Shown here one piece after another: positions 325-41,845 of a stretch of 41,845 nt of DNA. The position numbers and the translations under genes were made by a program. Position 1 is the stretch's first letter. Every line of letters starts with the position of its first letter. The DNA lies in contig JAISBF010000144.1 of NCBI GenBank assembly GCA_031266335.1, positions 1-41,845 on the forward strand, in the 5' to 3' direction. The notes under the pieces are model-generated. The model saw only the letters and a list, made by a program, of their open reading frames with translations, made no database searches and was not told where the DNA came from. This stretch comes from Verrucomicrobiales bacterium. Lineage in GTDB: Bacteria; Verrucomicrobiota; Verrucomicrobiia; Methylacidiphilales; JAAUTS01.

Positions 325-482
325 TATAAATTTGCCAGTTTTAGCGTAAGCGGAACTGCAAGCGCTTTTTTCCCTGTTTTTCATGCTGGTGTTGCCGGCG
401 GTTGCCGCCCGGCTGTGCCTGATCTTGCCGTCGTGCCCGGCGCTGACGGTCTGTCTGCGGTAACTCAATCGGAGGAAGTATT

Positions 483-3400
483 ATGAGCACAAATAAAACC
501 ATCAAAGGGCTGGCCGTGGCGTTGTCACTGTCAGCGGTCTGTCTGGCCGGCTCACCGTCAGCGTGGGCGGCGGTGACTTGGGACAATGTCACCAAATATG
601 GCGACTGGTCGCTGGGCGGCACGGTGTATGAACTTGGTTCCGGTGAGACACCGCTGCCGGGCAGCAACGGCATCGTCGATCGCTACACTTATCCCGGCAC
701 CGGCGCGTATTATGACTCCGGCACGATACCGCTGAATGACATATACAATCTTAATATTCTCTCCTTCTATGACCAGCGTCATAATGGCGGCACGCCGCCC
801 GCGAATTATGTGCTTACGTTCGCCGGCACGGGCGCGATGATTTTCGGCGGCGGTAACGAACCGCTTTGGTCAACCAGCGGCATTATTCTTGGCGCGAGCA
901 TGAGTTATCGCAATCTCACGTATCAATTCAACACGGACATCTACGTCGGCGGCAATTTCAACGCCGCGAATTACTCCACGGTTTTCTTTGTCAACAACAG
1001 CGCGCCGTCGCAGAACAACACCTTGGTATTCGGCACGACGGCCGACCGCAAAACCATCGCCGGTCTGCAAACCAACGTCAGCGGCACGGTCGGCCTGCAA
1101 TTGTACGGACCGAGCGGCGGCGTCATCAACGACCACCTCGCTGACGGTGTCGGGCAGGGCGACCCCGAGGCTCCTTTGACCGGCGCGACGACGCTGGCGC
1201 TGACGATGTTTTCCTCCGCCACCTGGACGCTCACCGGCAGCGCCAGTTACACCGGCGCGACCCAGGTCATGGGCGGCGGCCGGCTGGTGCTCGATAACAC
1301 TTCGCTGAACGCGGAAAAAATTTCCAACCAGCTGGTGCTCGGCGGCACGATGTGGACCGGTAACAACTGGATTCTGGGCGGCGGCGGCGCGTCGGTCGAA
1401 CTCATCGGCAGCGCCGCGGCGGCCAGCGCGGAGACGCTGGACACGCTGACGGTGCTCAACGGCGCGAATCAAGTCATCGTCACGCCCGGCGCGGGGCAAA
1501 CGGCGGTATTCAACACCGGCAGCGTCACGCGCGGCAGCGCCTCGACCGGCGGCGCGACGGTGGATTTTCTGGTCAACGGCAGCGGCGGCAGTTTTACCAC
1601 GACGAACGCTGACGGTGATCTCGGCGCGTGGGCGACGTTGAATGGCGACGACTACGCCAGCGCCAGCAGCGGCAGCCTCGTCGCGGCGACGTACACGGCG
1701 GCGTGGGGCGCGGGCAACAACGTCAGTGTCAGCACGGACAGCGTCGCTGACGGCGCGACGGCGAAGAATTTGAAAATCAGCGCGCCGGCGACGCTGACGC
1801 TGACCGACAACAACACGCTGAGCGAAGGCGGCATCCTGTTCGCGGCCAGCGCGGGCGCGGACGACGCCGTGATCACCGGCGGCACGCTGACGGCGGGCGG
1901 CGGCGAGTTCATTATCCAGCAGCACAACACGGCCGCCGCGCTGGACATCGAATCCGCGCTGTCAGCGGCGATGCTGACCAAGACCGGCGCGGGCGACCTC
2001 ATCGTCAGCGGCACCAGCAACGCGAGCATCGTGAACATCAACCAGGGCGTGTTGCAACTGGGCGCTGACAATGTGCTGCTCGCCACCGGCACGATCAATT
2101 TGACCACCGCCGGCGCGACGCTGGACTTGAACGGCCACGACCTCACGACCTGGAGCATCCAGTCGCTGAACATGTATTCCGGCAAGGTCGCGCTGGATTA
2201 CGGCATGACCGCCGTGGTCGGCAACTTCGCGGCGGGCACCGAGGCGACGCTGACCGTCAATCGCGCCAATGACTGGACGGTGCAAACGGACGCGTTTTAC
2301 GGCGACTTGCAGACCGGCGACGGCGCGATATTGAATATTGTCAAAACCGGCGCCGGCGTTGCCAGACTGGCTTTTGTCCAGAACGGCGAGAACAATCGCG
2401 GGCAATACATCACCGGCAACTCGGTGTCGCAAGTCTATAATATCATCGCGGGCAACGTGAGCGTGGAACAAGGCACGCTGACCATCGGGCGCGACTTGTA
2501 TGTGTACGGCGGCCTGGACCTGGCGGCCGGCGCCTTGCTGGCGAACTGCGGTGCCGGGCAAAACGCGAATACCCTGCAAGCGTTCACCGGCCTGACCGGC
2601 GCGGGCAATTTGCAAAGCTGGGCGCGCGCGGGTTATATTTTCAACCTGGACGGCTCGTCGGAGATGGAGGTCTGGACCGGGCAGATCACGGGCGGCTCGC
2701 CGGTTGTATTCAACGGGGCCGGCACGCAGTATGTCGGCTTGCAAACCAACGTCGGCAACAACGGCCTGCTCGCGGCCGGCAACGCCGTGGTGATTACGCC
2801 GGGCTTCACGGTATCCCTCGGCATGGCGAACGACAACATCTTCTTCTCGCCGCTGAACGTGGCGGGTCAGGGCGTGATTAAAGTGACCGGCACCAGCGGC
2901 GTGGTGGCCGGTGTCGCTGGCGTGAACGCCATAATCGGCCTCACGCTGGCGGGCGGTACGATTTGGATTGCGCCGGAAGGCAGCGGGGAGAACATCACCG
3001 TCAGCGGCATGACCACCACTGCCGCCAGCGCCATTTCCTACGGTCGCGCGGCGCTTTTGAACGCTGCCAACATTACCCAGCTTGGCGGCAACAGCACGCT
3101 GTTGCTGGATCGCGGCGCGAACAACAGCCTGGACTTCCAACTGGGCAACGCGGCCTCGACCAACGCCAAGTTCGTCCGCAACCAGAACGGCACGCTGGTG
3201 CTCACCGCCGCGCACGGGTTGGGCGAGTTTGGCGGCGCGGAAAAACTCACCGTCTTCGGCAGTGAGTCGGCGCTGCCGGTGCTGACCAACGACATCATGA
3301 ATACCTCCATCGTCACCGCTGACGGTGTGACCGGCGCCGGCTCGTTCCTCACCACCAGTACCGCGGGTGTCACGAGCGGCGTGGTGTTGAAAGAAGCGAT

Positions 3401-5171
3401 CTACACCACTGACCTTGCCGCCGCCACCGGAACCTCGGTGGTCAAACACAGCGGCGACATCGCGCTGGCCGACAACACCGCGGTTTACGCCTTGCGCAAC
3501 GACGGCTCCATCGCCAACGATTACACGCTAACCGTGGGCACTGGCGCCGCCGGTTCGCAGGCCGGCTTGATCATGAACAACGCCGCCATCACCGGCAGCG
3601 GTACCATCACTGTTGGCGAGAGCGAGCTGACCGTCTATGTCAGCGGCAGCAACCGGCTGGAAAACAAACTCAACTACGCCAACAACAACAATTTCGTGGG
3701 GTTGACATTGTTCGGCGACGGCCTGCTGCAAATCACCTCGCCGCAAACTTTATGGCAGATGGTGTATCTCAACAGCGGCGTGCTGGAACTGAACGGGGTG
3801 GCGCAGGCGAACTGGGAGAGTCACAGCAGTTTTTGGTTGAAGGGCGGCGTGTTGCAAGCCAGCGGCAACTTCACGCGCACTTTCTCCAGTGCCAACAACA
3901 ATTCGTTCATGTGGTATGACGGCGGGTTTGCCGCTGGCAGTGAGGCGGGGCTGACGGTGAACGTGGGTGGCGACGGACGGACGCTGACCTGGCAAATCAC
4001 CAGCGGCTTCCTGAGCGATTACAGCGTGATGAAACTCGGCTCCCAATACGCCAAGGGCATGGTGACGCTGGTCAACAACATTGACCTGGGCGCGTCCACG
4101 TCGGCGGCCTTCACTGGCGAAGCGCAATACACCGGTCGTCAGGACGGCAGCGGCGGCAATTTGTTCCGCCAAATCGAGGTGGTTGACAACCCCGATTCGG
4201 GCGCCGACTACGCCATGATCAGCGGGGTGATCAGCAGCCAGATGGATTACAAGGGCATCCAGAAGAGCGGCGACGGCTTGCTGTTGTTGACCGGGGAAAA
4301 TACTTACACCGGCCCGACTTCCATTGCGGAAGGCGTGTTAGGCATTGTCGCTGACAGTGGTTTGGGCGCGGCACCGTCAGCGGCGGCGCCGATCACCGGC
4401 CACGTGAACCAGGGCACGGTGTTGATTAACGGCGGCGCGACGTTGCTGGCTTTCGGTAGCGTGACTCTCAGCGCCAACCGCAACATCCTGCTGGCCTCCG
4501 GCAGCGACGGCTCGCGCGGGGCGCGTATTGCCACGGCAGAGAACGGGATACTGACCTTCGGCGGTCAGCTGGGGGATTCGGTCGGTGAACAAGGCTCGCT
4601 GCTGGTCAACGGCGCGCTGCGGCTGACCGGCAGCTCCACCATCAGCGGCTTCACCGAAGTGGAAGAAGGCACACTGCTGGTGGACGGCGGCCTGAGCACC
4701 GCGCATGTTGTCGTTGATACCGGCGCGAAACTCGGCGGTTCCGGTCTGTTGACCACCAGCACCGGCGGCATCAGCGTCAGCGGCATTCTCGATGCCACTG
4801 AGGCGCTGACACTGGACTTGGCAGCGGACCAGAAATTGGAATTTCTTTCCGGCGCGACTTTGTTGGTGGACGCTAACAGTGCATTGACCTTCGCCAGCGA
4901 AGGTGACTGGCTCACCGGCAGCGGCAACGCGACGCTGGAGTTAACCGGCAACTTTGATTACGCCACGCAATACACCGTTTTGACCAACATCACCACCGAG
5001 GACTTCAGCTTCGCCACCATCAGCGGCTACGACACCGCGAACTACGAGGCGCAATGGGGATTGTCGGGCAACAGCTACATCCTGACCTTCGACGTCATCC
5101 CCGAACCGAGCACCTGGGCGCTGATCGTGACCGGTGTCGCCTTGTTGACCATACTGCGCCATCGCCGCTGA
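483..5171 (+). CDS. PEP-CTERM surface protein with autotransporter-associated beta-strand repeats (1562 aa)
   Basis: RBS GGAGGA at 471-476 and a signal peptide ending SAWA. The body is Gly/Thr/Asn/Ala-rich with repeats such as KSGDGLLLLTGENTYTGPTSI and LTKTGAGDLIVSG. The C-terminus VIPEPSTWALIVTGVALLTILRHRR is a PEP motif, TM helix and basic tail. Confidence 0.93.
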   Translation: MSTNKTIKGLAVALSLSAVCLAGSPSAWAAVTWDNVTKYGDWSLGGTVYELGSGETPLPGSNGIVDRYTYPGTGAYYDSGTIPLNDIYNLNILSFYDQRHNGGTPPANYVLTFAGTGAMIFGGGNEPLWSTSGIILGASMSYRNLTYQFNTDIYVGGNFNAANYSTVFFVNNSAPSQNNTLVFGTTADRKTIAGLQTNVSGTVGLQLYGPSGGVINDHLADGVGQGDPEAPLTGATTLALTMFSSATWTLTGSASYTGATQVMGGGRLVLDNTSLNAEKISNQLVLGGTMWTGNNWILGGGGASVELIGSAAAASAETLDTLTVLNGANQVIVTPGAGQTAVFNTGSVTRGSASTGGATVDFLVNGSGGSFTTTNADGDLGAWATLNGDDYASASSGSLVAATYTAAWGAGNNVSVSTDSVADGATAKNLKISAPATLTLTDNNTLSEGGILFAASAGADDAVITGGTLTAGGGEFIIQQHNTAAALDIESALSAAMLTKTGAGDLIVSGTSNASIVNINQGVLQLGADNVLLATGTINLTTAGATLDLNGHDLTTWSIQSLNMYSGKVALDYGMTAVVGNFAAGTEATLTVNRANDWTVQTDAFYGDLQTGDGAILNIVKTGAGVARLAFVQNGENNRGQYITGNSVSQVYNIIAGNVSVEQGTLTIGRDLYVYGGLDLAAGALLANCGAGQNANTLQAFTGLTGAGNLQSWARAGYIFNLDGSSEMEVWTGQITGGSPVVFNGAGTQYVGLQTNVGNNGLLAAGNAVVITPGFTVSLGMANDNIFFSPLNVAGQGVIKVTGTSGVVAGVAGVNAIIGLTLAGGTIWIAPEGSGENITVSGMTTTAASAISYGRAALLNAANITQLGGNSTLLLDRGANNSLDFQLGNAASTNAKFVRNQNGTLVLTAAHGLGEFGGAEKLTVFGSESALPVLTNDIMNTSIVTADGVTGAGSFLTTSTAGVTSGVVLKEAIYTTDLAAATGTSVVKHSGDIALADNTAVYALRNDGSIANDYTLTVGTGAAGSQAGLIMNNAAITGSGTITVGESELTVYVSGSNRLENKLNYANNNNFVGLTLFGDGLLQITSPQTLWQMVYLNSGVLELNGVAQANWESHSSFWLKGGVLQASGNFTRTFSSANNNSFMWYDGGFAAGSEAGLTVNVGGDGRTLTWQITSGFLSDYSVMKLGSQYAKGMVTLVNNIDLGASTSAAFTGEAQYTGRQDGSGGNLFRQIEVVDNPDSGADYAMISGVISSQMDYKGIQKSGDGLLLLTGENTYTGPTSIAEGVLGIVADSGLGAAPSAAAPITGHVNQGTVLINGGATLLAFGSVTLSANRNILLASGSDGSRGARIATAENGILTFGGQLGDSVGEQGSLLVNGALRLTGSSTISGFTEVEEGTLLVDGGLSTAHVVVDTGAKLGGSGLLTTSTGGISVSGILDATEALTLDLAADQKLEFLSGATLLVDANSALTFASEGDWLTGSGNATLELTGNFDYATQYTVLTNITTEDFSFATISGYDTANYEAQWGLSGNSYILTFDVIPEPSTWALIVTGVALLTILRHRR

Positions 5172-5173
5172 CC

Positions 5174-5408: not shown

Positions 5409-5416
5409 GGCCGGCA

Positions 5417-5814: not shown

Positions 5815-5869
5815 AGGCACGAAGTTGGGAGAACGGCGCTCCATGCCGGTGTCACGAGGTCAAGGTGAA

Positions 5870-6925: not shown

Positions 6926-6976
6926 GGATTAAATATGACCGCTGCCGGCGGGGTTGCAACGCCGGCGGTCGCACGG

Positions 6977-12641: not shown

Positions 12642-14110
12642 AACTCGCCGACTTGACGCAAGGGGTGACGATCAGCGGGCGTTACGACGCCGCTGACGGT
12701 GACGTGGAAATTTCGTCGCTGGCGTATGACGCGCGGCAAGTGACGCCGGGGGCGCTGTTCTGCACGTGGCGCGGGTTCAAATCGGACGGGCACCGTTTTG
12801 TCGCCGACGCCGTGCGGCGCGGCGCGGCGGCGCTGCTGGTGGAAAAATTGCCGGAACCGCTGCCGCGCATTCCGACGCTGTTGGTGGCGTCGGGGCGGCG
12901 GGCGCTGGCGCTGCTGGCGGCGAACTTTTACGGCCATCCGGCGCAAGCGCTGGATTTGACGGGCATCACGGGCACCAACGGCAAATCGTCCACCGGCTTT
13001 TTGCTGCATTATCTCAAGGAACAAGCGGGCCGCAAATGCGGGCTGCTCGGCACGGTCGAGTATCGCGCGGGGGACGAGAAAATCGCCGCGGCGCGCACCA
13101 CGCCGGAAAGTTCGGACTTGCAGGCGCTGCTGGCGCAAATCCGCGCCGCCGGCTGCCGGTCGGCGGTGCTGGAGGTGTCCTCGCACGCGCTGGAACTCGA
13201 CCGCGTGTACGGCGTGCCGTTCCGCGCCGCGGTGTTCACCAACCTGACGCGCGACCACCTGGACTTCCACGGCACCATGCAGGACTATGGCCAGGCCAAG
13301 CGCAAATTGTTCGCCACGCTGCCGGCGGGCAGCCTGGCGGTGATGAATCTCGACGACCGCTACAGCGCGCGCCTACTGGACGCGGTGCCGCTGACCGCGC
13401 GGACCGTGACCTACGGATTCGCGCCGCCGGCGAGCTATCGGGCGGAAAACATCCAATTGAGCGCCAACGGCAGCGTCTTCGACCTGGTCACGCCGAACGG
13501 CACGCTGCTGGCGCGCTCGCCGTGGTTGGGCCGCTACAACGTCGCCAACACGCTCGCGGCGCTGACGGTGATGGCCGCCGGCGGCGAGGCTTCGCTGGAG
13601 GAACTGGCCGACTGGCTGCCGGCCGCGCCGTATGTGCCGGGCCGGTTGCAAAAAGTGCCGCACGGCGGCGGGTTCACCGTGCTGGTGGATTACGCCCACT
13701 CGGACGACGCGGTGCGCAACGTGCTGCAAAGCCTGCGCCCGCTGTGCCGGGGCAAATTGAAAATCTTGCTCGGCTGCGGCGGCGACCGCGACTGCACCAA
13801 GCGCCCGCTGATGGCGCTGGCGGCCTGCGAGCTGGCGGACGAGGCGGTGTTCACCGCTGACAATCCGCGCAACGAGGACCCCGCGCTGATTTTGCGCGAC
13901 ATGCAGGTGGGCGTGGCGAATTTCAGCAATTACCGGGTGATTCCCGACCGGGCGCAGGCGATTGCCGCCATTCTCCGGCACGCCGCTGACGCTGACCTCA
14001 TCGTGCTGGCGGGCAAGGGGCACGAGACCACGCAGGAAATCAACGACGCGCGGCACCCGTTTGCCGACGCCGAGGTGGCTGCGCAAATCCTGAACGGAGG
14101 CGCCGCATGA
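12638..14110 (+). CDS. murE: UDP-MurNAc-L-Ala-D-Glu:meso-DAP ligase
   Basis: GITGTNGKSS, EVSSHAL, TNLTRDHLDFH and DYAH. The DNPR motif indicates meso-DAP specificity. Confidence 0.96.
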   Translation: MKLADLTQGVTISGRYDAADGDVEISSLAYDARQVTPGALFCTWRGFKSDGHRFVADAVRRGAAALLVEKLPEPLPRIPTLLVASGRRALALLAANFYGHPAQALDLTGITGTNGKSSTGFLLHYLKEQAGRKCGLLGTVEYRAGDEKIAAARTTPESSDLQALLAQIRAAGCRSAVLEVSSHALELDRVYGVPFRAAVFTNLTRDHLDFHGTMQDYGQAKRKLFATLPAGSLAVMNLDDRYSARLLDAVPLTARTVTYGFAPPASYRAENIQLSANGSVFDLVTPNGTLLARSPWLGRYNVANTLAALTVMAAGGEASLEELADWLPAAPYVPGRLQKVPHGGGFTVLVDYAHSDDAVRNVLQSLRPLCRGKLKILLGCGGDRDCTKRPLMALAACELADEAVFTADNPRNEDPALILRDMQVGVANFSNYRVIPDRAQAIAAILRHAADADLIVLAGKGHETTQEINDARHPFADAEVAAQILNGGAA

Positions 14111-15522
14111 GGGCCATGCCGTTGGGAGCCGTGGCGGAACTGGCCGACGGCCGGCTGGCGAGCGGGCCGGCGGCGCGTCACGCGCTGCGCGTGACCACGG
14201 ACACGCGCGCGCTGCGGCCGGGGGATTTGTTCGTGGCCTTGCGCGGCGACCATTTTGACGGCCATGATTTTGTCGCGCAAGCGGCGCAACAAGGCGCGGT
14301 CGGCGTATTGGTGAGCCGGCCGGACTCAGCGTCAGCGGTGCCGGCCGGTTGCGCGGTCATTCGGGTCGAGGACACCCTGGCCGGGTTGCAGCGGCTGGCG
14401 AAAAATTACCGGCGGACGCTGACCGTGAAAATCGTCGCGGTCACCGGCAGCAACGGCAAGACCAGCACGAAGGAATTTGTCGCGGCGGTGCTGGGCGCGC
14501 GCTTCAAGGTGCATAAAACGGCGGGCAATTTGAACAACCACATCGGCGTGCCGCTGACGGTGCTCGGCATTGACGACACGCACGCCTACGCCGTGGTGGA
14601 GCTGGGCATGAATCATCCGGGCGAACTCGCGCCGCTGGTGGAGATTGCCAGGCCGGACCTCGGCATCATCACCAACATCGGCTGGGCGCACGTCGAGGCG
14701 TTCGGTGGGCGGGATGAAATCGCGCTGGAAAAGGCGCGGGTGTTCGCGGCGCTGCCCGCCGACGGTCTCGCCGTGGTGAACGGCGACGACGAGCTGTCGC
14801 TGACCGTGGCGCGGCCGCTGACGGTGGCGCGGGCCGTGACCGTTGGCACCGGCGCTGACGGTGATTACCAAATCGTGTTGAAAAACAGCTCGCCGGCGGC
14901 CACGGAATTTTGGTTCGGCCGTACCAGCGCCGGCGCTGGCGGGGTCGTGGTCGCCCTGCCGCTGGCCGGCTGGCACCTGGCGCGCAATGCGGCACTGGCA
15001 GCGGCGCTGGGCGCGGAACTGGGCGTGGCGTGGCCGTGCATCGCCGCGGCACTGGCCGCGGTGAAATTGCCGGGTAATCGTTTGTCGGTGAGAAAATTCC
15101 GCCGCGGCTGGCTGCTGGACGACACGTACAACGCCAGCCCCGATTCGATGCTGGCGGCGTTCGCGACGCTGCAAAACCTGCCCGGCGCGGGATTCCGGGT
15201 CGCGCTGCTCGGCTCGATGGGCGAACTCGGCGCTGACAGTGAGCGGTTGCACCGCGAGATTGGCGCGGCGGCGGCGCGGGCGGGATTCGAGATTTTGCTG
15301 GCGCTCGGCGACCACGCGCGGGATTTGGTCGCGGGCGCTGACGCCGAGAGCGGCGGCAAGGTCTGGGCGAAGCATTTCGCCGACCATCAGGCACTGTCAG
15401 CGGCGTACGCGCGGGTCGCGCGGGCGGACGACAAGATTTTGGTGAAAGGCTCGCGCAGTCAGCGGATGGAACTGGCGGTGCGGGAACTGGAACGATTGGA
15501 GCGGTCATGTTGTATTTCCTGA
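14107..15522 (+). CDS. murF: UDP-MurNAc-tripeptide:D-Ala-D-Ala ligase
   Basis: TGSNGKTSTKE, NLNNHIGVPLT, ELGMNHPGE, DDTYNASP and KGSR. Confidence 0.96.
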   Translation: MRAMPLGAVAELADGRLASGPAARHALRVTTDTRALRPGDLFVALRGDHFDGHDFVAQAAQQGAVGVLVSRPDSASAVPAGCAVIRVEDTLAGLQRLAKNYRRTLTVKIVAVTGSNGKTSTKEFVAAVLGARFKVHKTAGNLNNHIGVPLTVLGIDDTHAYAVVELGMNHPGELAPLVEIARPDLGIITNIGWAHVEAFGGRDEIALEKARVFAALPADGLAVVNGDDELSLTVARPLTVARAVTVGTGADGDYQIVLKNSSPAATEFWFGRTSAGAGGVVVALPLAGWHLARNAALAAALGAELGVAWPCIAAALAAVKLPGNRLSVRKFRRGWLLDDTYNASPDSMLAAFATLQNLPGAGFRVALLGSMGELGADSERLHREIGAAAARAGFEILLALGDHARDLVAGADAESGGKVWAKHFADHQALSAAYARVARADDKILVKGSRSQRMELAVRELERLERSCCIS

Positions 15523-17958: not shown

Positions 17959-18834
17959 ATGAATGAGGAAATGAATGAGCAAAACGCAAAGACCCTGGCC
18001 AGCCCGAAGTTGTCCAGGATGGCATTAATCGTGGTGCTGGGAGTGCATGTGCTGGCGATTACCGGCTTCATCGTTTATAGCCTGTTGAAGGGGAATGTCA
18101 GCGGCAAGGACCATGCCGAGATGATCGCCGGCCCGGAGGATAGCGGCGAGACTGCGACCGTTGCCGCCGGCGGCAGCCAGCCGACCATTGAAACCAATGC
18201 CGGTGAAGCCAATGTCAGCGCCCCGATGGCGGCGGACATGACCGTGTCCGCGACCGCGGCGCCGGTGGCGCCGCTGCCCGGCCCGCAGGAGCCGATTTGG
18301 CATCCGACCACCGGCAGCCCGTCGGTCCCCGCGCCCGCGCCGGCTCCGGTGACGGCAAACGCCGGCGTTGTCTATACGGTGCAAAAGGGGGATTCGTTAT
18401 ATAAAATCGCCCGCCAGAGCGGGATCACCGTGGCGGAACTGAAGCAGGCCAACGGGCTGGTCTCCGACGCGCTGCAACCCGGCCAGACGCTGAATCTGCC
18501 GGCCGCGCTGACGGTGCCCGCCGGCGGTCAAGTCGCGTCAGCGTCAGCGCCCGCGCAGTCCGCGGCGCGCGCCGTCGCGACCGGCAGCGCCGCGGCGTCG
18601 TTCCAGAGCTACAAGGTGGCGCCGGGTGACACGTTGTGGAAAATCGCCCGTCAGTTCAACACCAAGCCCGACGTGATTGCCAGGGCCAACAACATCAGCG
18701 ACCCGTCGAAATTGAAAGTCGGCATGGAAATCAAGGTGCCGGTGCCGGCCCGCGAGACCGCGCAACCGGCGGCGCAACCGCAGGCGGCGGTGCCCAACGT
18801 GGACGTGGCGGCGCTGCCGCAGATCCGGAGTTAA
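17959..18834 (+). CDS. Membrane-anchored double-LysM protein
   Basis: N-terminal TM helix, a Pro/Ala-rich linker and two LysM domains (YTVQKGDSLYKIA; YKVAPGDTLWKIA). RBS AGGAG upstream. Confidence 0.9.
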   Translation: MNEEMNEQNAKTLASPKLSRMALIVVLGVHVLAITGFIVYSLLKGNVSGKDHAEMIAGPEDSGETATVAAGGSQPTIETNAGEANVSAPMAADMTVSATAAPVAPLPGPQEPIWHPTTGSPSVPAPAPAPVTANAGVVYTVQKGDSLYKIARQSGITVAELKQANGLVSDALQPGQTLNLPAALTVPAGGQVASASAPAQSAARAVATGSAAASFQSYKVAPGDTLWKIARQFNTKPDVIARANNISDPSKLKVGMEIKVPVPARETAQPAAQPQAAVPNVDVAALPQIRS

Positions 18835-25242: not shown

Positions 25243-26478
25243 ATGTTTTGGAAAAAGAAAGAAAGTTGCGCGATTACGGCGGTGGACGTGGGCACCAGCA
25301 AGATTGCGGTGGCGGTCGGCGAGCTGCGCCCGGACGGCTCGCTGGTGCTGCTGGGGGTCGGCGAGTCACCGTCAGCGGGCATTCGCAAGGGCGAAATCGT
25401 GGATTTTCAACTGGCGCAACAGGCGATTGAGCAGGCCCTGGCGGACGCGGAGGCCAAGACCGAATGCCTGATTGAGTATGTGTATCTCAGCCTGACCGGG
25501 ATGCATCTGGAGCCGAAAACCATCCGCCTGAAAACGCCGATTGACTCGGAAGACCATCGCATCACCGCGGCGCACGTTGAGCGCCTGGGCGAGCAAATGG
25601 AAAATTACGCCATCCCGGCGGAGCATGAAATCATCCACAGCGCGGTGCAGCATTACTATATCGACCGCAACGCGCCGACCGCCGACCCGATCGGGTTGAA
25701 CTCGCAGACCCTGGAGGCCAGTTATCATATCGTGCACGGCCTGCGCACGCGGCTGGAGACCCTGTTCCGTTGCGTGATGGAACTGGATATCAAGGTGGTG
25801 CATTACGCCCTGTCGTCGTACGCCAGTTCGCAGGCGATTCTGACCCGGCAACAAAAGGCGCTGGGCGCGGTGGTCATCGACATGGGGGCGGGAGTGACCG
25901 ATTACCTGGTGTACGCTGACGGTGCGGTGGCGCATACCGGCGTGCTGGCGGTGGGCGGCGACCATGTGACCCAGGATCTGGCCCTCGGCTTGAAACTGCC
26001 GTTCTCCAAGGCGGAGCAGTTGAAAATCAAGCACGGCAATTTATCCACCGGCGCGGAACGGCCCAACGCCCGGCTGACCATCGAAAAGGACATGAATTCC
26101 GACGAGCGCAGCGTGTACGTGGAGTCGCTCGGCAAAATCATGGATTTGCGCATCCGGGAAACCCTGGAACTGATTCGCGACGAAATTGACAGCAAGGGAT
26201 TGTGGGCGCGGGTGTCCGGCAACGTGTATCTCACCGGCGGCGCCTCGCAAGTGCCCGGCCTGCAACGGCTGGCCGGCGAAGTGTTTCCCGCGCCGGCGCG
26301 GCTGGCGCATGAGTTTTTGCTGGAGGGCGACCAGACCTATAACAAGCGCCCGGATTTGTCCACGGTGCTGGGGCTGTTGCGGTATGCGCAGCATTATGAC
26401 TTGCAGCACGAGCGCCTGACCGGCTGGGCGCGGTGGCGGCGGCGGGTGCAGGATTGGGTGCCGCTGCGGATTTTTTAA
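25243..26478 (+). CDS. ftsA: Cell division protein FtsA
   Basis: DVGTSKI, GIRKGEIVD, IDMGAGVTD, GGDHVTQDLA, LTGGAS and a C-terminal amphipathic helix. Confidence 0.95.
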   Translation: MFWKKKESCAITAVDVGTSKIAVAVGELRPDGSLVLLGVGESPSAGIRKGEIVDFQLAQQAIEQALADAEAKTECLIEYVYLSLTGMHLEPKTIRLKTPIDSEDHRITAAHVERLGEQMENYAIPAEHEIIHSAVQHYYIDRNAPTADPIGLNSQTLEASYHIVHGLRTRLETLFRCVMELDIKVVHYALSSYASSQAILTRQQKALGAVVIDMGAGVTDYLVYADGAVAHTGVLAVGGDHVTQDLALGLKLPFSKAEQLKIKHGNLSTGAERPNARLTIEKDMNSDERSVYVESLGKIMDLRIRETLELIRDEIDSKGLWARVSGNVYLTGGASQVPGLQRLAGEVFPAPARLAHEFLLEGDQTYNKRPDLSTVLGLLRYAQHYDLQHERLTGWARWRRRVQDWVPLRIF

Positions 26479-27828: not shown

Positions 27829-29069
27829 TGCATCTCATGAAAAAACTGCTGGCCGGTCTCTGCCTGTGCGGCCTGCTGGGCGGGTGGTGCGCCGGCGCTC
27901 AGGCCAGGGTGCTGGTCGGCATTGACACCTTGCGGGCGCTGAACTTCCCCGGTTTGGCGGGCAAGCGGGTCGGGTTGGTGACCAATCCGGCCGGCGTGGA
28001 CGCTGACGGTGTGCCCACCTGGCAGATTTTGCGGGCCGCCAAGCAAGTGCGGCTGGTGGCCTTGTTCGGGCCTGAGCACGGCGTGTACGGCACCGTCAAG
28101 GCCGGCGCCAAGGTGGCCGACCAGCTTGACGCCAACACGGGGCTGCCGGTGTATTCGCTGCACGGCGTGACGCGGAAGCCGACGCCGGACATGCTGCGCG
28201 GCATCGACGTGCTGATTTACGACGTGCAGGACATCGGCGCGCGCAGTTACACCTACATCAGCACGCTGGGGCTGGTCATGCAGGCGGCGGCGGAGCTGGG
28301 GATTGAGGTGTACGTGCTGGACCGGCCCGATCCGCTGGGCGGGCTGCGGGTGGAAGGCGGCGGGGTCAGCCCGGATTACCGTTCCTTCGTCGGGCAATAC
28401 GACATCCCGTATGTGTACGGCCTGACGCCGGGCGAGCTGGCGTTGTGGATCAACGACCGCTGGCTGACGACGCCCTGCAAGTTGAAGGTCTTTAAGATGA
28501 ACGGCTGGACGCGGCGCATGACCTGGCGGGATACCGGGTTGCGCTGGGTGCCGACCTCGCCCAACATCCCCACCCCGCAGGCGGCGGTCGGTTACGCGGC
28601 GACGGGGTTGCTGGGCGACATCGGCGTGACCAACGGCGCCAATGTGACCGCTTACCCGTTCCAGGTCATCGCGGCGGAAAACCTGGACGCCGGCGGCATG
28701 ACCCGGCGGTTCAACGCCATCGGCCTGTCCGGCGTGACGGCGGATCCGTTCTCATTTTACCCCGCCGGGGGCAAATACGCCGGGGTGAGATACAGCGGCA
28801 TCCGGCTGGATTTGGATCCGCACGCCCGCGCCAACCTGCTGGCCATCAATTTCCGGGTGCTGGATGTGTTGCGGGTGATGACGCCGCAGAAGAATTACTT
28901 CAAGCGCGCCAGCGCCGACGGCATTAAAATGTTCGACAAAATCAACGGCGGCCCCGCCAACCGGACGGCCTGGCTGGCGGGCCGGAGCGGCGACCTGATT
29001 GCCCGCTCGTGGCAGGCCAGGGAAGCCAGTTGGCTGGCGGAGCGCAAGCCCTACTTGCTCTATCAGTGA
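27828..29069 (+). CDS. DUF1343 / NamZ-like exo-beta-N-acetylmuramidase, secreted
   Basis: Signal peptide, then GLVTNPAG, LFGPEHG, DVQDIGARSYTY, LDRPDPLGG and WVPTSPNIP. Alternative start at 27837. Confidence 0.88.
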   Translation: MHLMKKLLAGLCLCGLLGGWCAGAQARVLVGIDTLRALNFPGLAGKRVGLVTNPAGVDADGVPTWQILRAAKQVRLVALFGPEHGVYGTVKAGAKVADQLDANTGLPVYSLHGVTRKPTPDMLRGIDVLIYDVQDIGARSYTYISTLGLVMQAAAELGIEVYVLDRPDPLGGLRVEGGGVSPDYRSFVGQYDIPYVYGLTPGELALWINDRWLTTPCKLKVFKMNGWTRRMTWRDTGLRWVPTSPNIPTPQAAVGYAATGLLGDIGVTNGANVTAYPFQVIAAENLDAGGMTRRFNAIGLSGVTADPFSFYPAGGKYAGVRYSGIRLDLDPHARANLLAINFRVLDVLRVMTPQKNYFKRASADGIKMFDKINGGPANRTAWLAGRSGDLIARSWQAREASWLAERKPYLLYQ

Positions 29070-29079
29070 GCGCGGGGGA

Positions 29080-29114
29080 ATTGATTATTGATTATTGAAA
29101 ATTGATTATTTGGT
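29080..29114. repeat. Degenerate heptamer tandem (ATTGATT) x 5 at a convergent gene junction
   Basis: ATTGATT ATTGATT ATTGAAA ATTGATT ATTTGGT. Contains the ybeY stop codon. Confidence 0.7.
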
Positions 29115-29592
29115 AACGGGCCGGCCGCGGGCGCAACACTTGGTTGCGGAGGCGGGTCTGCCGGCGGCGCAGGCGTTGGAAATCCCGCTCGGTGTGATCG
29201 TCGTAACCGCACAGGTGCAGGCAGCCGTGGATGATGTAGGTGAGCACTTCCGCTGCCAGTGACAGTTTTTCCAGGTGGCGCTGACGCTCGGCCACGGCGG
29301 GGCAGACGATGAGTTCGCCGTGGTCGAAGGTGATGACATCGGTGGCGGCGGGGTCGGCCAGAAACTCCCGGTGAACGCGGGCGCTTTCACGGGCGCTGAC
29401 CATGACCACGACCAATTCCCGCACGCGGCCCGGCCAGGCGCGGCCCAGCGCGGCGACGGCCAGTTCAGTTTGCCGGCGCAGCAGGCGCAGCGGCAGCCGG
29501 TGCCGCTTTTGCCGGTTGAGGATTCTTATCCTTGGCCCGGGCGGCGGGGTCCTGGTCTTTTTTGGGTTTGGCGGGGTATTCGGGGCGCGCAT
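29092..29592 (-). CDS. ybeY: rRNA maturation endoribonuclease YbeY
   Basis: TDVITF and the metal-binding IHGCLHLCGYDDH. phoH-HD-ybeY gene order. Start uncertain because of the overlap with the HD gene. Confidence 0.88.
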   Translation of the reverse strand: MRAPNTPPNPKKTRTPPPGPRIRILNRQKRHRLPLRLLRRQTELAVAALGRAWPGRVRELVVVMVSARESARVHREFLADPAATDVITFDHGELIVCPAVAERQRHLEKLSLAAEVLTYIIHGCLHLCGYDDHTERDFQRLRRRQTRLRNQVLRPRPARYQIINFQ

Positions 29593-31102
29593 GGAGCATG
29601 TTTTTCAGGGTGAAGATGAGCCGCTTGGTGATCAGGGAGATTTCGTTGAAGCTGAGTTGGGACTCGTCGAGCTGGCCTTCCTGCACCCGGCTCTTGATGA
29701 CTTCGCGCACCAGGTTCTCCACCCGCTGGGCGGTGGGGTTTTTCAGCGAGCGCGAGGCGCTTTCCACCGCGTCGGCCAGGGAGACGATGGCCGATTCCTT
29801 GGTTTGCGGGATGGGGCCGGGGTAGCTGAACGAGCGCGGGTCAACCTCAGGGATATCCTCCTCGCGCAGCCGCAGAATCTTGCCCCCCTCGCGGGCGTCC
29901 TGCTGCTGTTGCAGGGCGCGCTTGTAAAAATAATACACCAGCGAGGTGCCGTGATGCTCCTTGATGACGTCGATGATAGGCTGGCGCAGGCCGTGCTTGA
30001 GCGCGAGGTCGATGCCGTCCTTGACGTGGCTGATGATAACCAGCGCGCTCATCGAGGGGGTGAGCTGCGCGTGCGGGTCCTGGCCGGGGATGACGTTCTC
30101 GGTGAAATACTGCGGCTTGTCGAGCTTGCCGATGTCGTGGAAGTAGGCGCAGACGCGGCACTGGGTGGGATTGGCGCCGATGGCCTCGGCGGCGGACTCG
30201 GCGAGGTTGGCGACGTTCAGGCTGTGATGATACGTGCCGGGCGCCTCCTCGGCGAGTTGCTTGAGCAGCGGATGCTTCAAGTCGGCCAGCTCGACCCAGG
30301 AAATATCCGTGATGCGGTCAAACAGCCACTCGAACACCGGCAGCACCGCGGCGACGATGAACGAGGTGAGCACTCCCAGGACAATCGCCAGCACCCCCTG
30401 GGAGACCAGAAACAGCGTCTTGTTGGGAATACTGTTCGCGTTGCCCAAATCCAGCACCCCGCCCAGCAACAACGCGCAGGCCAGGCCGACCAAGCTGATC
30501 TTCACCCCGGCCATCAAGATGTCGGCACGGCGGCGGATGTGTTGGCTGAGTTGCGCGGCGGTCAGTCCGGTAATCAAACTGCTCAGGAACACCCCAGGGT
30601 CAGCGCCGATGAACAACATGCCGGACACCGACAGGATAAAAGCCGTGATGAACCCCGCCGCCGGCGAAATCAAAATAGTCAGCAACATCGGCGCCAACGC
30701 CGAGGGCAGCAGCAGCATCGGGATCTGCTCCCCGGTGATTTTCGTGACGTTGGTGTACAGGAAAATGTACTTGTTGACCGCCAGATTAATCACCAGGCAG
30801 AGCATCGTCAGCAGCAGCAACTGATTGCTCTTCCAGACCTCCTTCGACGACAGCGGCAGCAGGAACAGAAACAGCGTGAGAATCAGCACCGTCAGCACGA
30901 AAATCTCATACGCCGGCGCCTCGCTGGCCCACAACCCGATGCGCATCAGCACCGCGAAGAACGCCCCCAGCATCAGCCAGCGCGCCGCCGCGCTCTGCTC
31001 GAACCAGTCGCGCCAGTCCGTGTCCTTGTCCTGGCGGCGCGTCTTGCCGCAGGACAAGCCCTTGCGCTCGAGCGACTTTTTCTTGAGCCATTGTAAAATC
31101 AT
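29465..31102 (-). CDS. Multi-TM HDIG phosphohydrolase (7TM-HD, PgpH/YqfF-like)
   Basis: Several TM helices, then APGTYHHSL, YFHDIGK, YFTEN, HHGT, YPGPIPQTKE and LADAVESASRSL. Start at ATG 31102. Confidence 0.9.
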   Translation of the reverse strand: MILQWLKKKSLERKGLSCGKTRRQDKDTDWRDWFEQSAAARWLMLGAFFAVLMRIGLWASEAPAYEIFVLTVLILTLFLFLLPLSSKEVWKSNQLLLLTMLCLVINLAVNKYIFLYTNVTKITGEQIPMLLLPSALAPMLLTILISPAAGFITAFILSVSGMLFIGADPGVFLSSLITGLTAAQLSQHIRRRADILMAGVKISLVGLACALLLGGVLDLGNANSIPNKTLFLVSQGVLAIVLGVLTSFIVAAVLPVFEWLFDRITDISWVELADLKHPLLKQLAEEAPGTYHHSLNVANLAESAAEAIGANPTQCRVCAYFHDIGKLDKPQYFTENVIPGQDPHAQLTPSMSALVIISHVKDGIDLALKHGLRQPIIDVIKEHHGTSLVYYFYKRALQQQQDAREGGKILRLREEDIPEVDPRSFSYPGPIPQTKESAIVSLADAVESASRSLKNPTAQRVENLVREVIKSRVQEGQLDESQLSFNEISLITKRLIFTLKNMLHARPEYPAKPKKDQDPAARAKDKNPQPAKAAPAAAAPAAPAN

Positions 31103-31109
31103 ACCGGTA

Positions 31110-32078
31110 TCACGCCTGCTCCCGCGTCCCGCGGTGTTGTTGGTACGCGGCGACAATCCTGCCGACCAGCGGGTGCCGGATCACATCCTGCTCCTGGAAA
31201 CGGTAAAAAGCAATCCCCGCCACCCGCTCCAGCGCCTGCGCCGCCTCCAGCAAGCCCGACTGCCGGTGCCGCGGCAAGTCCACCTGCGTCGGGTCGCCCG
31301 TCACCACGCAACGCGAATCCGGCCCGAGCCGGGTCAGGAACATGAACAGCTGCTCCGCCGTGGTGTTTTGCGCCTCATCGAGAATCACAAACGAATTGGC
31401 CAACGTCCGCCCGCGCATGTACGCCAGCGGCGCGATTTCAATGACCCCCTGTTCCAGGTGCCGCGCCACCTCCTCCGCGCCGAGCAATTCCTGCAACGCG
31501 TCATACAACGGCCGCAGATACGGAAAAATCTTCTCCTTTAAATCACCGGGCAAGAACCCCAGCGCCTCCCCCGCCTCCACCGCCGGCCGCGTCAGGATAA
31601 TACGGTGTACCGCCTCGCGCCGCAACGCCGCCACCGCCATCGCCACCGCGAGAAACGTCTTGCCCGTGCCCGCCGGCCCGAGGCCGAAACACAAATCATG
31701 GGCGCGGATCGCGTCGAGATAAGCCTTTTGCGCGAACGTCCGGGGCGTCAGCGCCGCCTGGCGCCCCGGCAGACTGATGCGAGACCGCCACAACTCCTCC
31801 AGCGCCGCCCCGCGCCCGTCCGCCACCGCGTTCAACGTGAACAGAAACTCATGCGCGCGAATCTTCACCCCGTGCCTGACCGCGTCCTGCAACCGGGCGA
31901 ACAACTCGGCGGTTTGCTCAAGCCCCTGGGGCGCCCCCGCCACCTTCAGCCACCCGTCGCGCGTCGTCACCTTGACCGCGCACCGTTGCTCCAACGCCTC
32001 CAGCAACCCGGCCTCACCGGCATACAACCCGGAGAGCACCCGCGCGTTTTCAAAGTTCAACACCTTGGCATGAGACAT
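31110..32078 (-). CDS. phoH: PhoH-family ATPase
   Basis: GPAGTGKTFLA, TRPAVEAGE, LGFLPGD, PLAYMRGRTL, DEAQN and GDPTQVDLP. Start at ATG 32078. Confidence 0.95.
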   Translation of the reverse strand: MSHAKVLNFENARVLSGLYAGEAGLLEALEQRCAVKVTTRDGWLKVAGAPQGLEQTAELFARLQDAVRHGVKIRAHEFLFTLNAVADGRGAALEELWRSRISLPGRQAALTPRTFAQKAYLDAIRAHDLCFGLGPAGTGKTFLAVAMAVAALRREAVHRIILTRPAVEAGEALGFLPGDLKEKIFPYLRPLYDALQELLGAEEVARHLEQGVIEIAPLAYMRGRTLANSFVILDEAQNTTAEQLFMFLTRLGPDSRCVVTGDPTQVDLPRHRQSGLLEAAQALERVAGIAFYRFQEQDVIRHPLVGRIVAAYQQHRGTREQA

Positions 32079-32139
32079 CCAGAAGAAACTATCTTTTAAA
32101 CCATCCCTGTCAACAGGCCAGACCGTAAGGAGTACGAGG

Positions 32140-32218
32140 TTTAACCACGGATGGACACCGATGCACACGGATAAAACCAAAAAACATCCGTGTTCATCCG
32201 TGTCCATCCGTGGTTAAA
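32140..32218. repeat. Palindromic element, family CACGGATG (copy 1)
   Basis: TTTAACCACGGATGGACACCGATGCACACGGAT ... ATCCGTGTTCATCCGTGTCCATCCGTGGTTAAA. Each arm is three 10-bp units. Confidence 0.9.
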
Positions 32219-32230
32219 GAAACGGAAGAG

Positions 32231-32737
32231 GCGGCGCGGTCGCCAAGCGCGGTGGCGCGGTCGCTGAGGGAGGTGGGCGCGGTCGCCAAGCGCGGCGGCG
32301 CGGTCGCTGAAGGAAGTGGGCGCGGTCGCCAAGCGCGGTGGCGCGGTCGCTGAAGGAAGTGGGCGCGGTCGCCAAGCGCAGCGGCGCGGTCGCTGAGGGA
32401 GGTGGGCGTAATCGCCAAGCGCGGCGGCGTGGTCGCTGAAGGAGGTGGGCGTGGTCGCCAAGCGCGGCGGCGTGGTCGCTGAAGGAGGTGGGCGTGGTCG
32501 TCAAGCGCGGCGGCGTGGTCGCTGAGGGAGGTGGGCGTAGTCGTCAAGCGCGGCGGCGCGGTCGCTGAGGGAGGTGGGCGTGGTCGTCAAACGCAGCGGC
32601 GCGGTCGCTGAGGAAGGTGGGCGTAGTCGCCAAGCGCGGCGGCGTGGTCGCCAAACGCGGCGGTGTTAATCGTCAAGCGCAGCGGTGTAGTCGCCAAACG
32701 CAGCGGTGTAATCGTCAAGCGCGGCGGTGTAATCGTC
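32231..32737. repeat. Minisatellite: about 9.5 copies of a 43-bp unit, decaying into about 5 copies of a 21-bp unit
   Basis: The CGYCAA core recurs at 32241, 32284, 32327, 32370, 32413, 32456, 32499, 32542, 32585 and 32628 (period 43). It then recurs at 32649, 32671, 32692 and 32713, with a degenerate copy at 32734 (period about 21). Confidence 0.93.
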
Positions 32738-32924
32738 GAGAAAAGCGCCTCTCCCGCTGAAAGATACGTCTCTCACGACAGAAGAAACTCCACTTTCAGC
32801 GCCCACCCCGTCATCCACAACCCCAACCCCCAACCCATCAACCAAGCGCCCCGGCCTACCCCCCGCGACACCTTCCTCCCCAACCAACCCAACCCTCCGC
32901 GCCTCCGCGTCTCCGCGGTTAAAT

Positions 32925-34187
32925 CTAACAACCCCCCGCCGCCGCCGCCGGCACAATGATCGCGTCACTCATGCCGTGGATGATTTTCTTGTCCGCCGGC
33001 GTAATCGTCACCAACACCCCCTTCAGCGCCGCCTGGCCGTCCTCGACGAAATAGTACGGGCACAGCCGCGCCCGCCCCGGCAGCACCGTCAGCGCCCGCG
33101 CCGCCTCGTCCCAGTACGGATGCTCGACCATGCGGCCCTTCACAAAACGCTGCATGATGCGCGGCGACTCCGCAAACTCCGCCAGCGCCCGCGTCACCGC
33201 CGCGCGCCACTCCTCCCCGCTCACGTCGAACCCCATCGTCACGCCGCGCGAACCCCACGCCAGCGGCGAAAACCCGGACACCTTCAACACCAGCGCGCGC
33301 TCCTTCTGCGAGAACGCCGCCACCTCGCGCCAGCTCTGCACCTCCAGGCCGGGCAGCACCGCCGACGGCGGCAACTCGGTCGGCTCCACCACCCAACTGG
33401 GCGGAATAATCGCCTGCAAATCGCGCCAATAACGGTCACCCAACTCCTGCCGCCAGAACTCGCGCAGCGGCCGCAGCCAAAACAGCGCGAGCCACAACTT
33501 TTCCTCCAGAAACGGCTTCAGCGGCGGGTCCATTCGCACCGTCGGCGAATAACTCGCTGACAGCGACGGCAAATTCCCCCAGTCGAAACACTCGAAGAAC
33601 CGGTACACCGGCTCCCCGCTGAACGTGTACCGTTCCGCCGCGCGCACCCGCCGCGCGCCGTAAAGCCACTCCATCTCCGGGCGATAATCGGCGGCCTCCG
33701 CGCTGATGACGACACTGCCGGCGGGAAAATGCCGGCGCGCCGCTGCCGTCATCCCCGTCGCGCCGCCGACGACCGGCTCGCCGAGCGCGGCGTAAGTCTC
33801 GTTCAACCACGCCGTCAGCCCCACCCCGCCGGGCACGGAATCAATCTCCGACAACGCGAACCCGCCGTCAGCGAGAATCAAATCGGGGCGGATAATCGTC
33901 GGCAAATCGTTCTTGACCGCCGCTGACCGTGCCAGCTCCACCAACTCGCGCGGCTTGCCGAGATCGAGCCATTCCGCGATCCACGCCGGCGCCCGGCCCT
34001 GCCAGCTCTTGCGGTACAACAGATTCGCCGCCTGCAGGAACTTGTGCAACCGCGGCCCGAGCCGGGCCAGAAACTCCACCGTCGCCGCGTCCAGCGGAAA
34101 CGCTGACGGCGCCACCCGCCAAGTCTTGCCCGCGAACAGGCCGCTCGCCGGCATGGCGCGCTTGATGTGTGCGATTCTCTCAATCAT
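32925..34187 (-). CDS. Hypothetical protein, probable ATP-grasp ligase (glutathionylspermidine-synthase / circularly permuted type)
   Basis: IIRPDLIL...ALSEIDSVPGG (RxD...ExD), VLKVSGFSPLAWGSRGV and RIMQRF. Start at ATG 34187, because the upstream extension lies within a repeat. Confidence 0.6.
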   Translation of the reverse strand: MIERIAHIKRAMPASGLFAGKTWRVAPSAFPLDAATVEFLARLGPRLHKFLQAANLLYRKSWQGRAPAWIAEWLDLGKPRELVELARSAAVKNDLPTIIRPDLILADGGFALSEIDSVPGGVGLTAWLNETYAALGEPVVGGATGMTAAARRHFPAGSVVISAEAADYRPEMEWLYGARRVRAAERYTFSGEPVYRFFECFDWGNLPSLSASYSPTVRMDPPLKPFLEEKLWLALFWLRPLREFWRQELGDRYWRDLQAIIPPSWVVEPTELPPSAVLPGLEVQSWREVAAFSQKERALVLKVSGFSPLAWGSRGVTMGFDVSGEEWRAAVTRALAEFAESPRIMQRFVKGRMVEHPYWDEAARALTVLPGRARLCPYYFVEDGQAALKGVLVTITPADKKIIHGMSDAIIVPAAAAGGC

Positions 34188-35236: not shown

Positions 35237-35264
35237 AGTGCCAAGTTACGCGGCGGGGGAGGGT

Positions 35265-39556: not shown

Positions 39557-39578
39557 GGGTGGTTGATTATTGGGTTGT

Positions 39579-39713
39579 AAATTCAAAATTAAAAATGAAA
39601 AGTGCAAAATTGCAGTTAAAAATTCAAAATTGGATGCAGGATTCCCTGCCGGAGTCGATAGCTGCATTTTGAATTTTGCATGGCAACTTTGCATTTTGCT
39701 TTTTGCGCTTTGA
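39579..39713. repeat. AT-rich palindromic element, family AAAATTC/GCAAAA (copy 1)
   Basis: AAAGTGCAAAATTGCAG..AAAATTCAAAATTGGATGCAG...CGGAGTCGATAGCTGCATTTTGAATTTTG..CTTTGCATTTTGCTTTTTG. Confidence 0.85.
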
Positions 39714-39734
39714 GTTCCTCGGCTAACATCTCCC

Positions 39735-41246: not shown

Positions 41247-41378
41247 AAAAGCAAAAAGCAAAGTGCAAAATTGCAATTCAAAATTCAAAATTGAATGCGG
41301 ACCCCGTCGGAGTCGGTAGCTGCATTTTGAATTTTGAATTGCAATTTTGCACTTTGCTTTTTGCACTTTTAATTTTCC
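41237..41378. repeat. AT-rich palindromic element, family AAAATTC/GCAAAA (copy 2); probable bidirectional terminator
   Basis: Near-perfect arms GGAAAATTAAAA..GCAAAAAGCAAAGTGCAAAATTGCAATTCAAAATTCAAAAT and ATTTTGAATTTTGAATTGCAATTTTGCACTTTGCTTTTTGC..TTTTAATTTTCC. Lies between convergent genes. Confidence 0.9.
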
Positions 41379-41845
41379 CCGTCAACAAACTCACGGTCAG
41401 CGCCGAGCGAGATTTTCGCACCGGCGCGGATGTATAACGGGATGCGGTCCAGCGGGCAGGCCACGTCCAGCCAGCGGCTGCCGCTGACGGTCTCGCCCGT
41501 CCACCAGTCCGTCCAGCCGCCCGGCGGCAGATACACGCGGCGGCGGTCGGCGGCGCTGAAGATGGGCGCGACGAGCAAATCCCGGCCGAATAAAAATTCG
41601 TCCTGGATGTTCCAGGTCGTCGGGTCGTCCTGGAAGTCCAGCACCAGCGGGCGCGCCAGCGGTTGACCACGGTCAGCGGCGTGTTTCGCCTCGGCCAAAA
41701 TGTAGGGCAGCAGCCGGTAGCGCAGTCGCAGAAACTCGCGGCAGATGCGCAGCGTTTCCGGGGCGAATTTGTACAGCTCGCGGTCGCCGACGCCGTGGAT
41801 GCGCGCGTGCGAGAGGAACACGCCGAGTTGCAGCCAGCGGATGAG
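41369..41845 (-). CDS. Glycoside hydrolase family 31 (alpha-xylosidase/glucosidase-like), 3' part only
   Basis: IRWLQLGVFLSHARIHG, LRYRLLPY, PLARPLVLDF, EFLFGRDLLVAP, VYLPPGGWTDWW and IPLYIRAG. The frame is open at the window end. Confidence 0.9.
   Translation of the reverse strand, partial: LIRWLQLGVFLSHARIHGVGDRELYKFAPETLRICREFLRLRYRLLPYILAEAKHAADRGQPLARPLVLDFQDDPTTWNIQDEFLFGRDLLVAPIFSAADRRRVYLPPGGWTDWWTGETVSGSRWLDVACPLDRIPLYIRAGAKISLGADREFVDGEN

Follow-up and report, generated by a model that had tools for sequence, protein, structure and literature searches.

The question raised by contig JAISBF010000144.1 of the Verrucomicrobiales assembly GCA_031266335.1 is why one short asymmetric word, CGCTGACRNTG, recurs along its entire length. 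This stretch of 41,845 bp, analysed whole and referred to here as the window, corresponds to contig C61 in a source assembly of 2.77 Mb (G000; 222 contigs, the largest at most 82 kb, 61% GC). Exact matching located 78 copies in the window (43 on the + strand and 35 on the − strand; one every 536 bp), compared with a mean of 0.42 and a maximum of 2 in 100 shuffles that preserved its dinucleotides. An earlier note, made from the letters of the window, had reached about 43 and about 35 copies by hand and a density of about 1 per 540 bp, and exact matching recovered every coordinate that it listed. We found that CGCTGAC-NN-TG-(A), as it is better written, exists as a genuine word at the DNA level and is under active maintenance. 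As to what maintains it, we rank first a self-DNA tag similar to the DNA uptake sequences (DUS) of Neisseriaceae and the uptake signal sequences (USS) of Pasteurellaceae, a reading to which we assign a probability of roughly 0.4.

The consensus differed in one respect from that first proposed. Fixed flanks around a variable inner pair held, as did the choice of CGCTGACGGTG as the commonest variant of CGCTGACRNTG, but a purine at the first inner position did not, since C is also common there (CGCTGACCGTG, 725 copies genome-wide). The better consensus is CGCTGAC-N-N-T-G (CGCTGACNNTG; 96 copies in the window versus 0.62 in the shuffles) followed by a weaker A at position 12. In a logo conditioned on GCTGAC, C occupied position −1 in 81% of cases, both inner positions were loose with C common at the first, and T and G came next at 71–72%, then A at 44%. 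When one mismatch was allowed in the 12-mer, positions 1–5 (CGCTG) were the strictest and positions 8–9 nearly free. Flanks beyond about 13 bp (outside positions −3 to +10) carried background information, with 3-base codon periodicity only.

Restriction of the word to the window, a possibility weighed in the earlier note, was ruled out: the whole assembly contains 4046 copies of CGCTGACRNTG and 5129 of CGCTGACNNTG (one per 540 bp), every larger contig included. Compared with an order-3 Markov model, CGCTGACGGTG occurred 1770 times genome-wide versus 23.6 expected (75x), CGCTGACCGTG 725 times versus 11.2 and CGCTGACGGTGA 939 times versus 5.6. Genes were called with a self-trained codon model that is rough (2059 genes, 82% of bases), making the frame and coding/non-coding figures approximate. 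The enrichment survived the codon-shuffled control that the same note had called for: genes held 3613 copies, compared with 350 after a synonymous-codon shuffle that keeps the proteins (20 shuffles) and 47 after a codon-order shuffle, and the genes of the window held 75 versus 6.5 after synonymous shuffling (200 shuffles, maximum 12). An order-3 model built on the non-coding DNA predicted 10 copies there, and 518 were present. Density ranged from 1.76 to 2.76 per kb across gene-size classes, which is 6–9x over the synonymous shuffle, genes of <300 aa included; because it is similar in genes of all sizes, giant proteins of the PATR type are not the source of the word.

The 1770 exact copies of CGCTGACGGTG occupy every reading frame available to them, the sixth holding TGA. 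Sense copies encode L-T-V (427) or A-D-G (451), antisense copies encode T-V-S (596), P-S-A (104) or H-R-Q (16), and 176 are non-coding or at a gene edge; about 88% of copies lie inside gene calls. The word has reshaped the proteome, as is visible in tripeptide usage: TVS (observed/expected 7.5), VSG and LTV (4.2) are the top three over-represented of 7987 tripeptides and ADG (2.6) is seventh, each encoded mainly by the word's own 9-mer.

To place the word phylogenetically, 31 genomes were compared, comprising G000 and 30 relatives; five species (G000–G004) form the genus and 26 genomes belong to other genera. The exact 11-mer was hyper-abundant in four congeners only (1770, 1384, 2054 and 1081 copies), with 33 copies in the fifth species, G001, and at most 27 in each of the 26 genomes of other genera. 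G001 (54.6% GC) has instead a sister word, CGCTAAY-N-R-Y-G-A, at a density similar to that of the CGCTGAC word (681 CGCTAAY cores in 400 kb). Its top 12-mers in a k-mer analysis of the same 400 kb were 250–480x over expectation, and CGCTAAYGRCGA occurred 710 times in G001 and no more than 6 times in any of the remaining 30 genomes. Genomes of other genera were sampled rather than read whole for other words, and no comparably dispersed hyper-abundant word was found in four sister-genus genomes (G005–G008; 49–100 kb samples) or in 22 further genomes of the order (22–72 kb samples); the scan did recover its two positive controls (60 kb of G001 and 56 kb of G003). Candidates that it raised in G023, G012 and G021 proved to be a single gene for a repetitive protein, a word enriched weakly at 3.6x and hairpins like repetitive extragenic palindromic (REP) elements, respectively. 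Among viral contigs of IMG/VR, the 14-mer GCCGCTGACGGTGA matched at least 118 stretches; in 80 of these, 109 copies are spread over 681 kb, a background density, and the lack of a word-dense locus among those 80 says little about phages of the genus. Among the relatives examined, the word is a genus-specific signature with dialects.

Alignment of the two dialects shows how sites changed from one to the other. Over 19.4 kb of G000–G001 alignment at 74% identity, 10 of 27 G001 cores matched a G000 CGCTGAC core in register and strand, and G000 cores occupy 65 of the 19,391 alignment registers. Since G001 cores so often stand opposite G000 cores, the dialect change converted inherited sites in place, and G001 has switched to the CGCTAAY dialect partly by this route. 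Of the three main frames, two accommodate the G-to-A substitution without an amino-acid change (CTG to CTA, GTC to GTT). A 20-kb island of G001 (G001:C2:1-20000; 58–66% GC) departs from its surroundings in having 47 CGCTGAC cores versus 5 CGCTAAY cores, and was probably acquired from the other dialect group by transfer between lineages. The island is 66–77% identical to parts of contigs C92 and C166 of G000, including the giant-protein gene of C166. Another stretch, G001:C11:1-24000, has almost no copies of either dialect.

Comparison of close relatives indicated that the word is under constraint now. G003 and G000 are 95.6% identical over 114.5 kb, in which 215 sites could be aligned. At the nine specified positions of these sites, 30 differences were seen where codon position predicted 86.7; the inner N pair had 18 versus 17.2, and the six flanking positions had 81 versus 54.8. 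Because the specified positions differ at about 0.35x the expected rate, these bases are under present-day constraint, whereas the inner pair is free to change. Individual sites are less durable. In G002 (77% identity), 12 of 45 window sites still read as the word (matched baseline 15%, p = 0.03); G004 kept 5 of 21 against a baseline of 13%, and G001 kept 1 of 42 against one of 10%. High density combined with turnover of sites in each lineage points to continuing drive or to selection on density, not to conserved position-specific elements. Divergence between G000 and G003 within ±300 bp of sites gave no tract-like signal, with a 1.3x rise in the 20 nt on the 3′ side of the word and nowhere else.

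Together, these data require a sequence-specific process that acts on DNA and whose specificity, on a single branch of the genus, came to differ at one or two bases. That such a process drove the word into the genome the earlier note had inferred, and it stands on the five frames, the intergenic enrichment, the survival of codon shuffling, the lineage specificity with a sister dialect and the constrained bases; the note left a choice among uptake, methylation-linked repair and a nucleoid protein.

The orientation and placement of the word bear on that choice, and the window offers examples of each arrangement:

526 to 41678, both strands: field of 96 copies of CGCTGACNNTG, with matches spread across essentially every gene of the window.
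Genes under this field, named from Pfam: the PATR giant protein, glpX, tsaB/E, rsmH, ftsI, murE, murF and mraY; murD, ftsW, murG, murC-murB, ddl, ftsQ, ftsA and ftsZ; namZ, pdxA, a surA-like gene, mfd and others.
1139 to 1149, + strand: example copy of the commonest form, CGCTGACGGTG, within the PATR-repeat giant protein gene.
4349 to 4382: closely spaced inverted pair, with a + copy at 4349 and a − copy at 4372, a minority arrangement genome-wide.
13984 to 13994, + strand: site that reads CGCTAAC... at the orthologous position of the congener G001, an example of in-place dialect conversion.
14798 to 14863, + strand: cluster of three direct copies in 66 bp in murF, illustrating the over-dispersed spacing.
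25367 to 25377, − strand: example exact copy within ftsA, a housekeeping gene without repeat protein.
28012 to 33083: relatively word-poor stretch with 2 copies in 5 kb, covering the namZ 3′ end, ybeY, a 7TM-HD protein gene, phoH and an intergenic gap.

Genome-wide, the exact 11-mer of G000 was divided between 888 forward and 882 reverse copies. In 10-kb windows there were 475 forward and 432 reverse copies where GC skew was positive, and 352 and 439 where it was negative; the orientation of the word correlated with gene direction as strongly as with skew. On long G001 contigs with a steady skew of 0.07–0.17, that species' own dialect was unpolarised (186:195 and 161:139). The little strand bias claimed at the outset is thus confirmed in both dialects. 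Word density increases with local GC. The longest stretches of G000 without the 7-mer core include the ribosomal-protein/rpoA/secY operon, a CRISPR array and two low-GC islands. These islands, 4–5 kb each, lie at C96:8726-14109 (0.42 GC) and C43:8604-12830 (0.40 GC) and were probably acquired recently; the one on C96 encodes a C5 DNA methyltransferase and a Vsr endonuclease. The word-free CRISPR array, at C81:16-3300, has at least 46 copies of a 32-nt repeat with spacers of about 34 nt and a type I-C appearance.

Among known systems, the word most resembles DUS/USS in form and comes nearer to HIP1 (highly iterated palindrome 1) in placement. We prefer a DUS/USS-like tag. The word resembles an uptake sequence in being non-palindromic, about 12 bp long, equally frequent in forward and reverse, without replichore polarity and divided into lineage dialects, and the turnover of its sites, with 12 of 45 kept in G002, argues for continuing drive. 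DUS and USS are likewise short asymmetric words of about 10–12 bp with thousands of copies, on the order of 1 per kb, a density of the same order as that of the word here. They too are equal on both strands, fall in several reading frames, distort tripeptide usage, form dialects at species or genus level with single-base differences between them and are missing from foreign islands or present there in another dialect.

We infer a sequence-specific DNA-recognising protein, its specificity co-evolving with the word, whose recognition confers a transmission advantage on word-bearing DNA. Under the preferred mechanism, the protein would be a surface or periplasmic receptor of an uptake pathway of type IV filaments, ComEC and DprA that prefers DNA carrying the word. 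Conspecific word-bearing fragments would then be taken up and recombined more often, the word would be driven to a mutation–drive–selection balance in every tolerant codon context, and foreign islands would be left word-free. The word-free low-GC islands of G000 and the island in the other dialect on G001:C2 are consistent with the last step.

The machinery of the genus fits such a pathway in part. All five genus genomes are metagenome-assembled genomes (MAGs), 77–92% complete, and absences from them are provisional. ComEC was found in 5/5, DprA in 4/5, and PilB/PilT-class (T2SSE-class) ATPases and secretins each in 5/5; in G000, a PilC-like gene adjoins two PilB-like genes and there are several prepilins of the GFTLIE type. 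The presence of ComEC, DprA and type IV-filament genes is a further likeness to DUS/USS. For the uptake bias proposed earlier, ComEC, DprA and the filament ATPases were found, but ComEA, a ComP-type receptor and an association with terminators were not. G000 also has two homologous, non-identical topA-dprA loci (C78:450-4098 and C94:2073-5698), both on contigs that carry the word, which reflect either duplication or co-binned strains; the contamination estimate of this assembly is 0.2%.

Several observations weigh against an uptake tag. ComEC was present in 9/9 genomes of the family, including sister genera without any such word, and the machinery is therefore permissive, not diagnostic; the best secretin of G000 has three Secretin_N domains and looks GspD-like. 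Searches of the five genus genomes with the profiles HHH_3 and TIGR00426 did not find ComEA, their only matches in all five being Tex-like open reading frames (ORFs) of about 800 aa that fell below the TIGR cut-off, and ComP_DUS exceeded its cut-off in 0/5, with sub-threshold matches to pilin N-termini only. Placement also differs. About half of DUS/USS copies and most of their inverted pairs sit in transcription terminators, according to bioRxiv 2025.10.24.684340, whereas the word here is mostly coding and is not concentrated in terminators or inverted pairs: short convergent (3′/3′) intergenic gaps had 1.33 copies per kb versus 1.12 in divergent and 1.49 in tandem gaps, and 113 of 1248 +/− neighbour pairs in G000 were within 40 bp. 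Spacing in G000 is clustered and over-dispersed (coefficient of variation 1.35). Dialects, conservation between genomes and paucity in highly transcribed regions are reported for HIP1 as well (PMC5861425) and are not specific to uptake. The open-access literature searched yielded no documentation of natural transformation in Verrucomicrobiota. The word also comes from a different phylum than DUS and USS, is unrelated to them in sequence, and belongs to organisms represented by uncultured MAGs.

A bolder version of the uptake reading, which we consider doubtful, is that the word represents a third, independently evolved uptake or self-recognition sequence system, the first outside Proteobacteria, with a recent dialect switch, and that it would operate in the absence of ComEA or a ComP-type receptor, hence by way of a new word-reading protein. 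A 2025 comparative study is concerned with the uptake sequences of two proteobacterial families, Neisseriaceae and Pasteurellaceae (bioRxiv 2025.10.24.684340). Searches of the open-access literature for the word, for uptake sequences or competence in Verrucomicrobia and for highly iterated motifs that are not palindromic turned up no account of this word or of a comparable one in Verrucomicrobiota.

Almost as likely as a DUS/USS-like tag is a chromosomal role similar to that of HIP1 (GCGATCGC) and HIP1-like words of cyanobacteria, in which an abundant lineage-specific protein with a nucleoid, architectural or maintenance role would bind the word, and selection within the cell would keep the density of the word, rather than its exact positions, independently of DNA uptake. 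PMC5861425 describes HIP1 as 15–300x over-represented, conserved between genomes and of no known function; the 75x found here falls within that range. Similar hyper-abundance within and between genes, with copies in coding and non-coding DNA alike, constrained bases, sites kept above controls (12 of 45 in G002 against a matched baseline of 15%) and the lack of an apparent link to gene regulation or of any terminator association all fit this role, as does the failure to find ComEA in the five genus genomes. HIP1 also has lineage variants and is reported to be scarce in highly transcribed regions (PMC5861425), comparable to the dialects and to the word-free gap over the ribosomal-protein/secY operon. 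On the other side, the HIP-type words named in PMC5861425 are all palindromic octamers from cyanobacteria, whereas the present word is asymmetric, with a 7+2(+1) architecture over about 12 bp, and comes from a different phylum. No candidate binding protein was identified, and the loss of 33 of 45 sites at 77% identity fits drive better than a position-specific function.

It is unlikely that the word is a functionless by-product of biased repair or gene conversion, in which near-matches would be converted to it, possibly in connection with an asymmetric methyltransferase or a nicking enzyme. Turnover of sites at high density in every lineage and the graded enrichment of one-off variants are what such a process would leave, and the core, GCTGAC or GCTAAY, has what we take to be the general look of an asymmetric adenine-methylase site. 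G000 does encode a gamma-class N6 methyltransferase of 915 aa whose specificity domain is of the TaqI_C type; the enzyme is not shared even with G003. No methyltransferase family was common to all five genus genomes (N6_Mtase was lacking in G004, N6_N4 in G001 and C5 in G003), and the N6_N4 enzyme of G000 is paired with an EcoO109I-type endonuclease, forming an ordinary type II system. With Vsr in 3/5 genomes, neither a methyltransferase nor Vsr was found conserved across these incomplete MAGs, which bears on the methylation-linked repair suggested earlier; a conserved methyltransferase/Vsr pair was rejected on these grounds, and a bacteriophage exclusion (BREX) site was likewise rejected, PglZ being found in 0/5. 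Known effects of very-short-patch (VSP) type are only few-fold, not 75-fold.

Far less probable is a signal read by a DNA-processing motor, either Chi-like, for an AddAB-type helicase–nuclease, or similar to the FtsK-orienting polar sequences (KOPS) and SpoIIIE recognition sequences (SRS). Chi and KOPS/SRS are also over-represented asymmetric oligomers. They are strongly co-oriented with replication and far sparser, the word here being roughly 5–10 times denser than Chi or KOPS and essentially unpolarised. The four CGCTGAC genomes do have two large AddAB-like ORFs with PDDEXK_1 nuclease domains (a pair of 964 and 1021 aa at C90:6895-10675 of G000, with counterparts in G002, G003 and G004), and G000 shows the slight co-orientation with GC skew and genes given above; G001 maintains its dense dialect without an AddAB-type match (0 candidates), and RecC was found in 0/5 genus genomes. 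Near-zero polarity in G000 and on the strongly skewed long contigs of G001 largely refutes this reading, in agreement with the original view that the motif is not Chi- or KOPS-like. An artefact of codon usage and of PATR/beta-helix peptide motifs, or a small mobile repeat, is refuted, despite the likeness of LTV, TVS and LTL to PATR-repeat strands and despite the 16 of the 78 CGCTGACRNTG copies held by the PATR protein at the start of the window, by the five frames, the copies in intergenic DNA, the excess over synonymous shuffling in every gene-length class, the absence of the word from the sampled sister genera and flanks without any conserved element beyond the core of about 13 bp, which leaves no room for a REP or a miniature inverted-repeat transposable element (MITE). 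Even taken together, the motor signal and the artefacts have little likelihood.

Genome-wide signature words kept by a sequence-specific process are rare, and this is a clean new case in a different phylum. Two dialects within one genus, with sites converted in place, provide a natural experiment in which constraint can be measured and the protein imprint is strong. If the word is an uptake tag, gut or environmental Verrucomicrobia would undergo self-preferring natural transformation via a new receptor; if it is not, it would be an asymmetric counterpart to HIP1 whose reader protein may be traceable by dialect-correlated substitutions. In either case it is a sharp taxonomic marker and a marker of horizontal gene transfer, of use for MAG binning and for the detection of foreign islands.

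Other features came to light in the same sequences. In the window, murC-murB (21098-23473, + strand) is a single 791-aa ORF, in which the MurC Mur ligase spans residues 21–448 and the MurB domains FAD_binding_4 and MurB_C span residues 527–788. The linker between the two halves contains a repeat of about 47 bp (22520-22566) that has dozens of matches in G002 and several in G003 at 80–90% identity, and seems to be the in-frame insertion of a small dispersed element. A LysM-domain protein gene lies within the division and cell wall (dcw) cluster between murD and ftsW (17959-18834, + strand). Contigs of G000 other than that of the window carry the octamer GAGCGCGT in 75 tandem arrays, each with 3–14 copies and conserved flanks and many of them at contig ends (for example C20:3-114, C41:5-116, C56:23153-23232 and C25:8561-8648). 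The arrays are intergenic, about 200–400 bp upstream of two families of secreted or surface protein genes with N-termini like MNPKLTLLILS..ALNVFA and ..SVKKYIHKTWDG, and are consistently oriented toward these genes; in this arrangement they look like phase-variable contingency loci.

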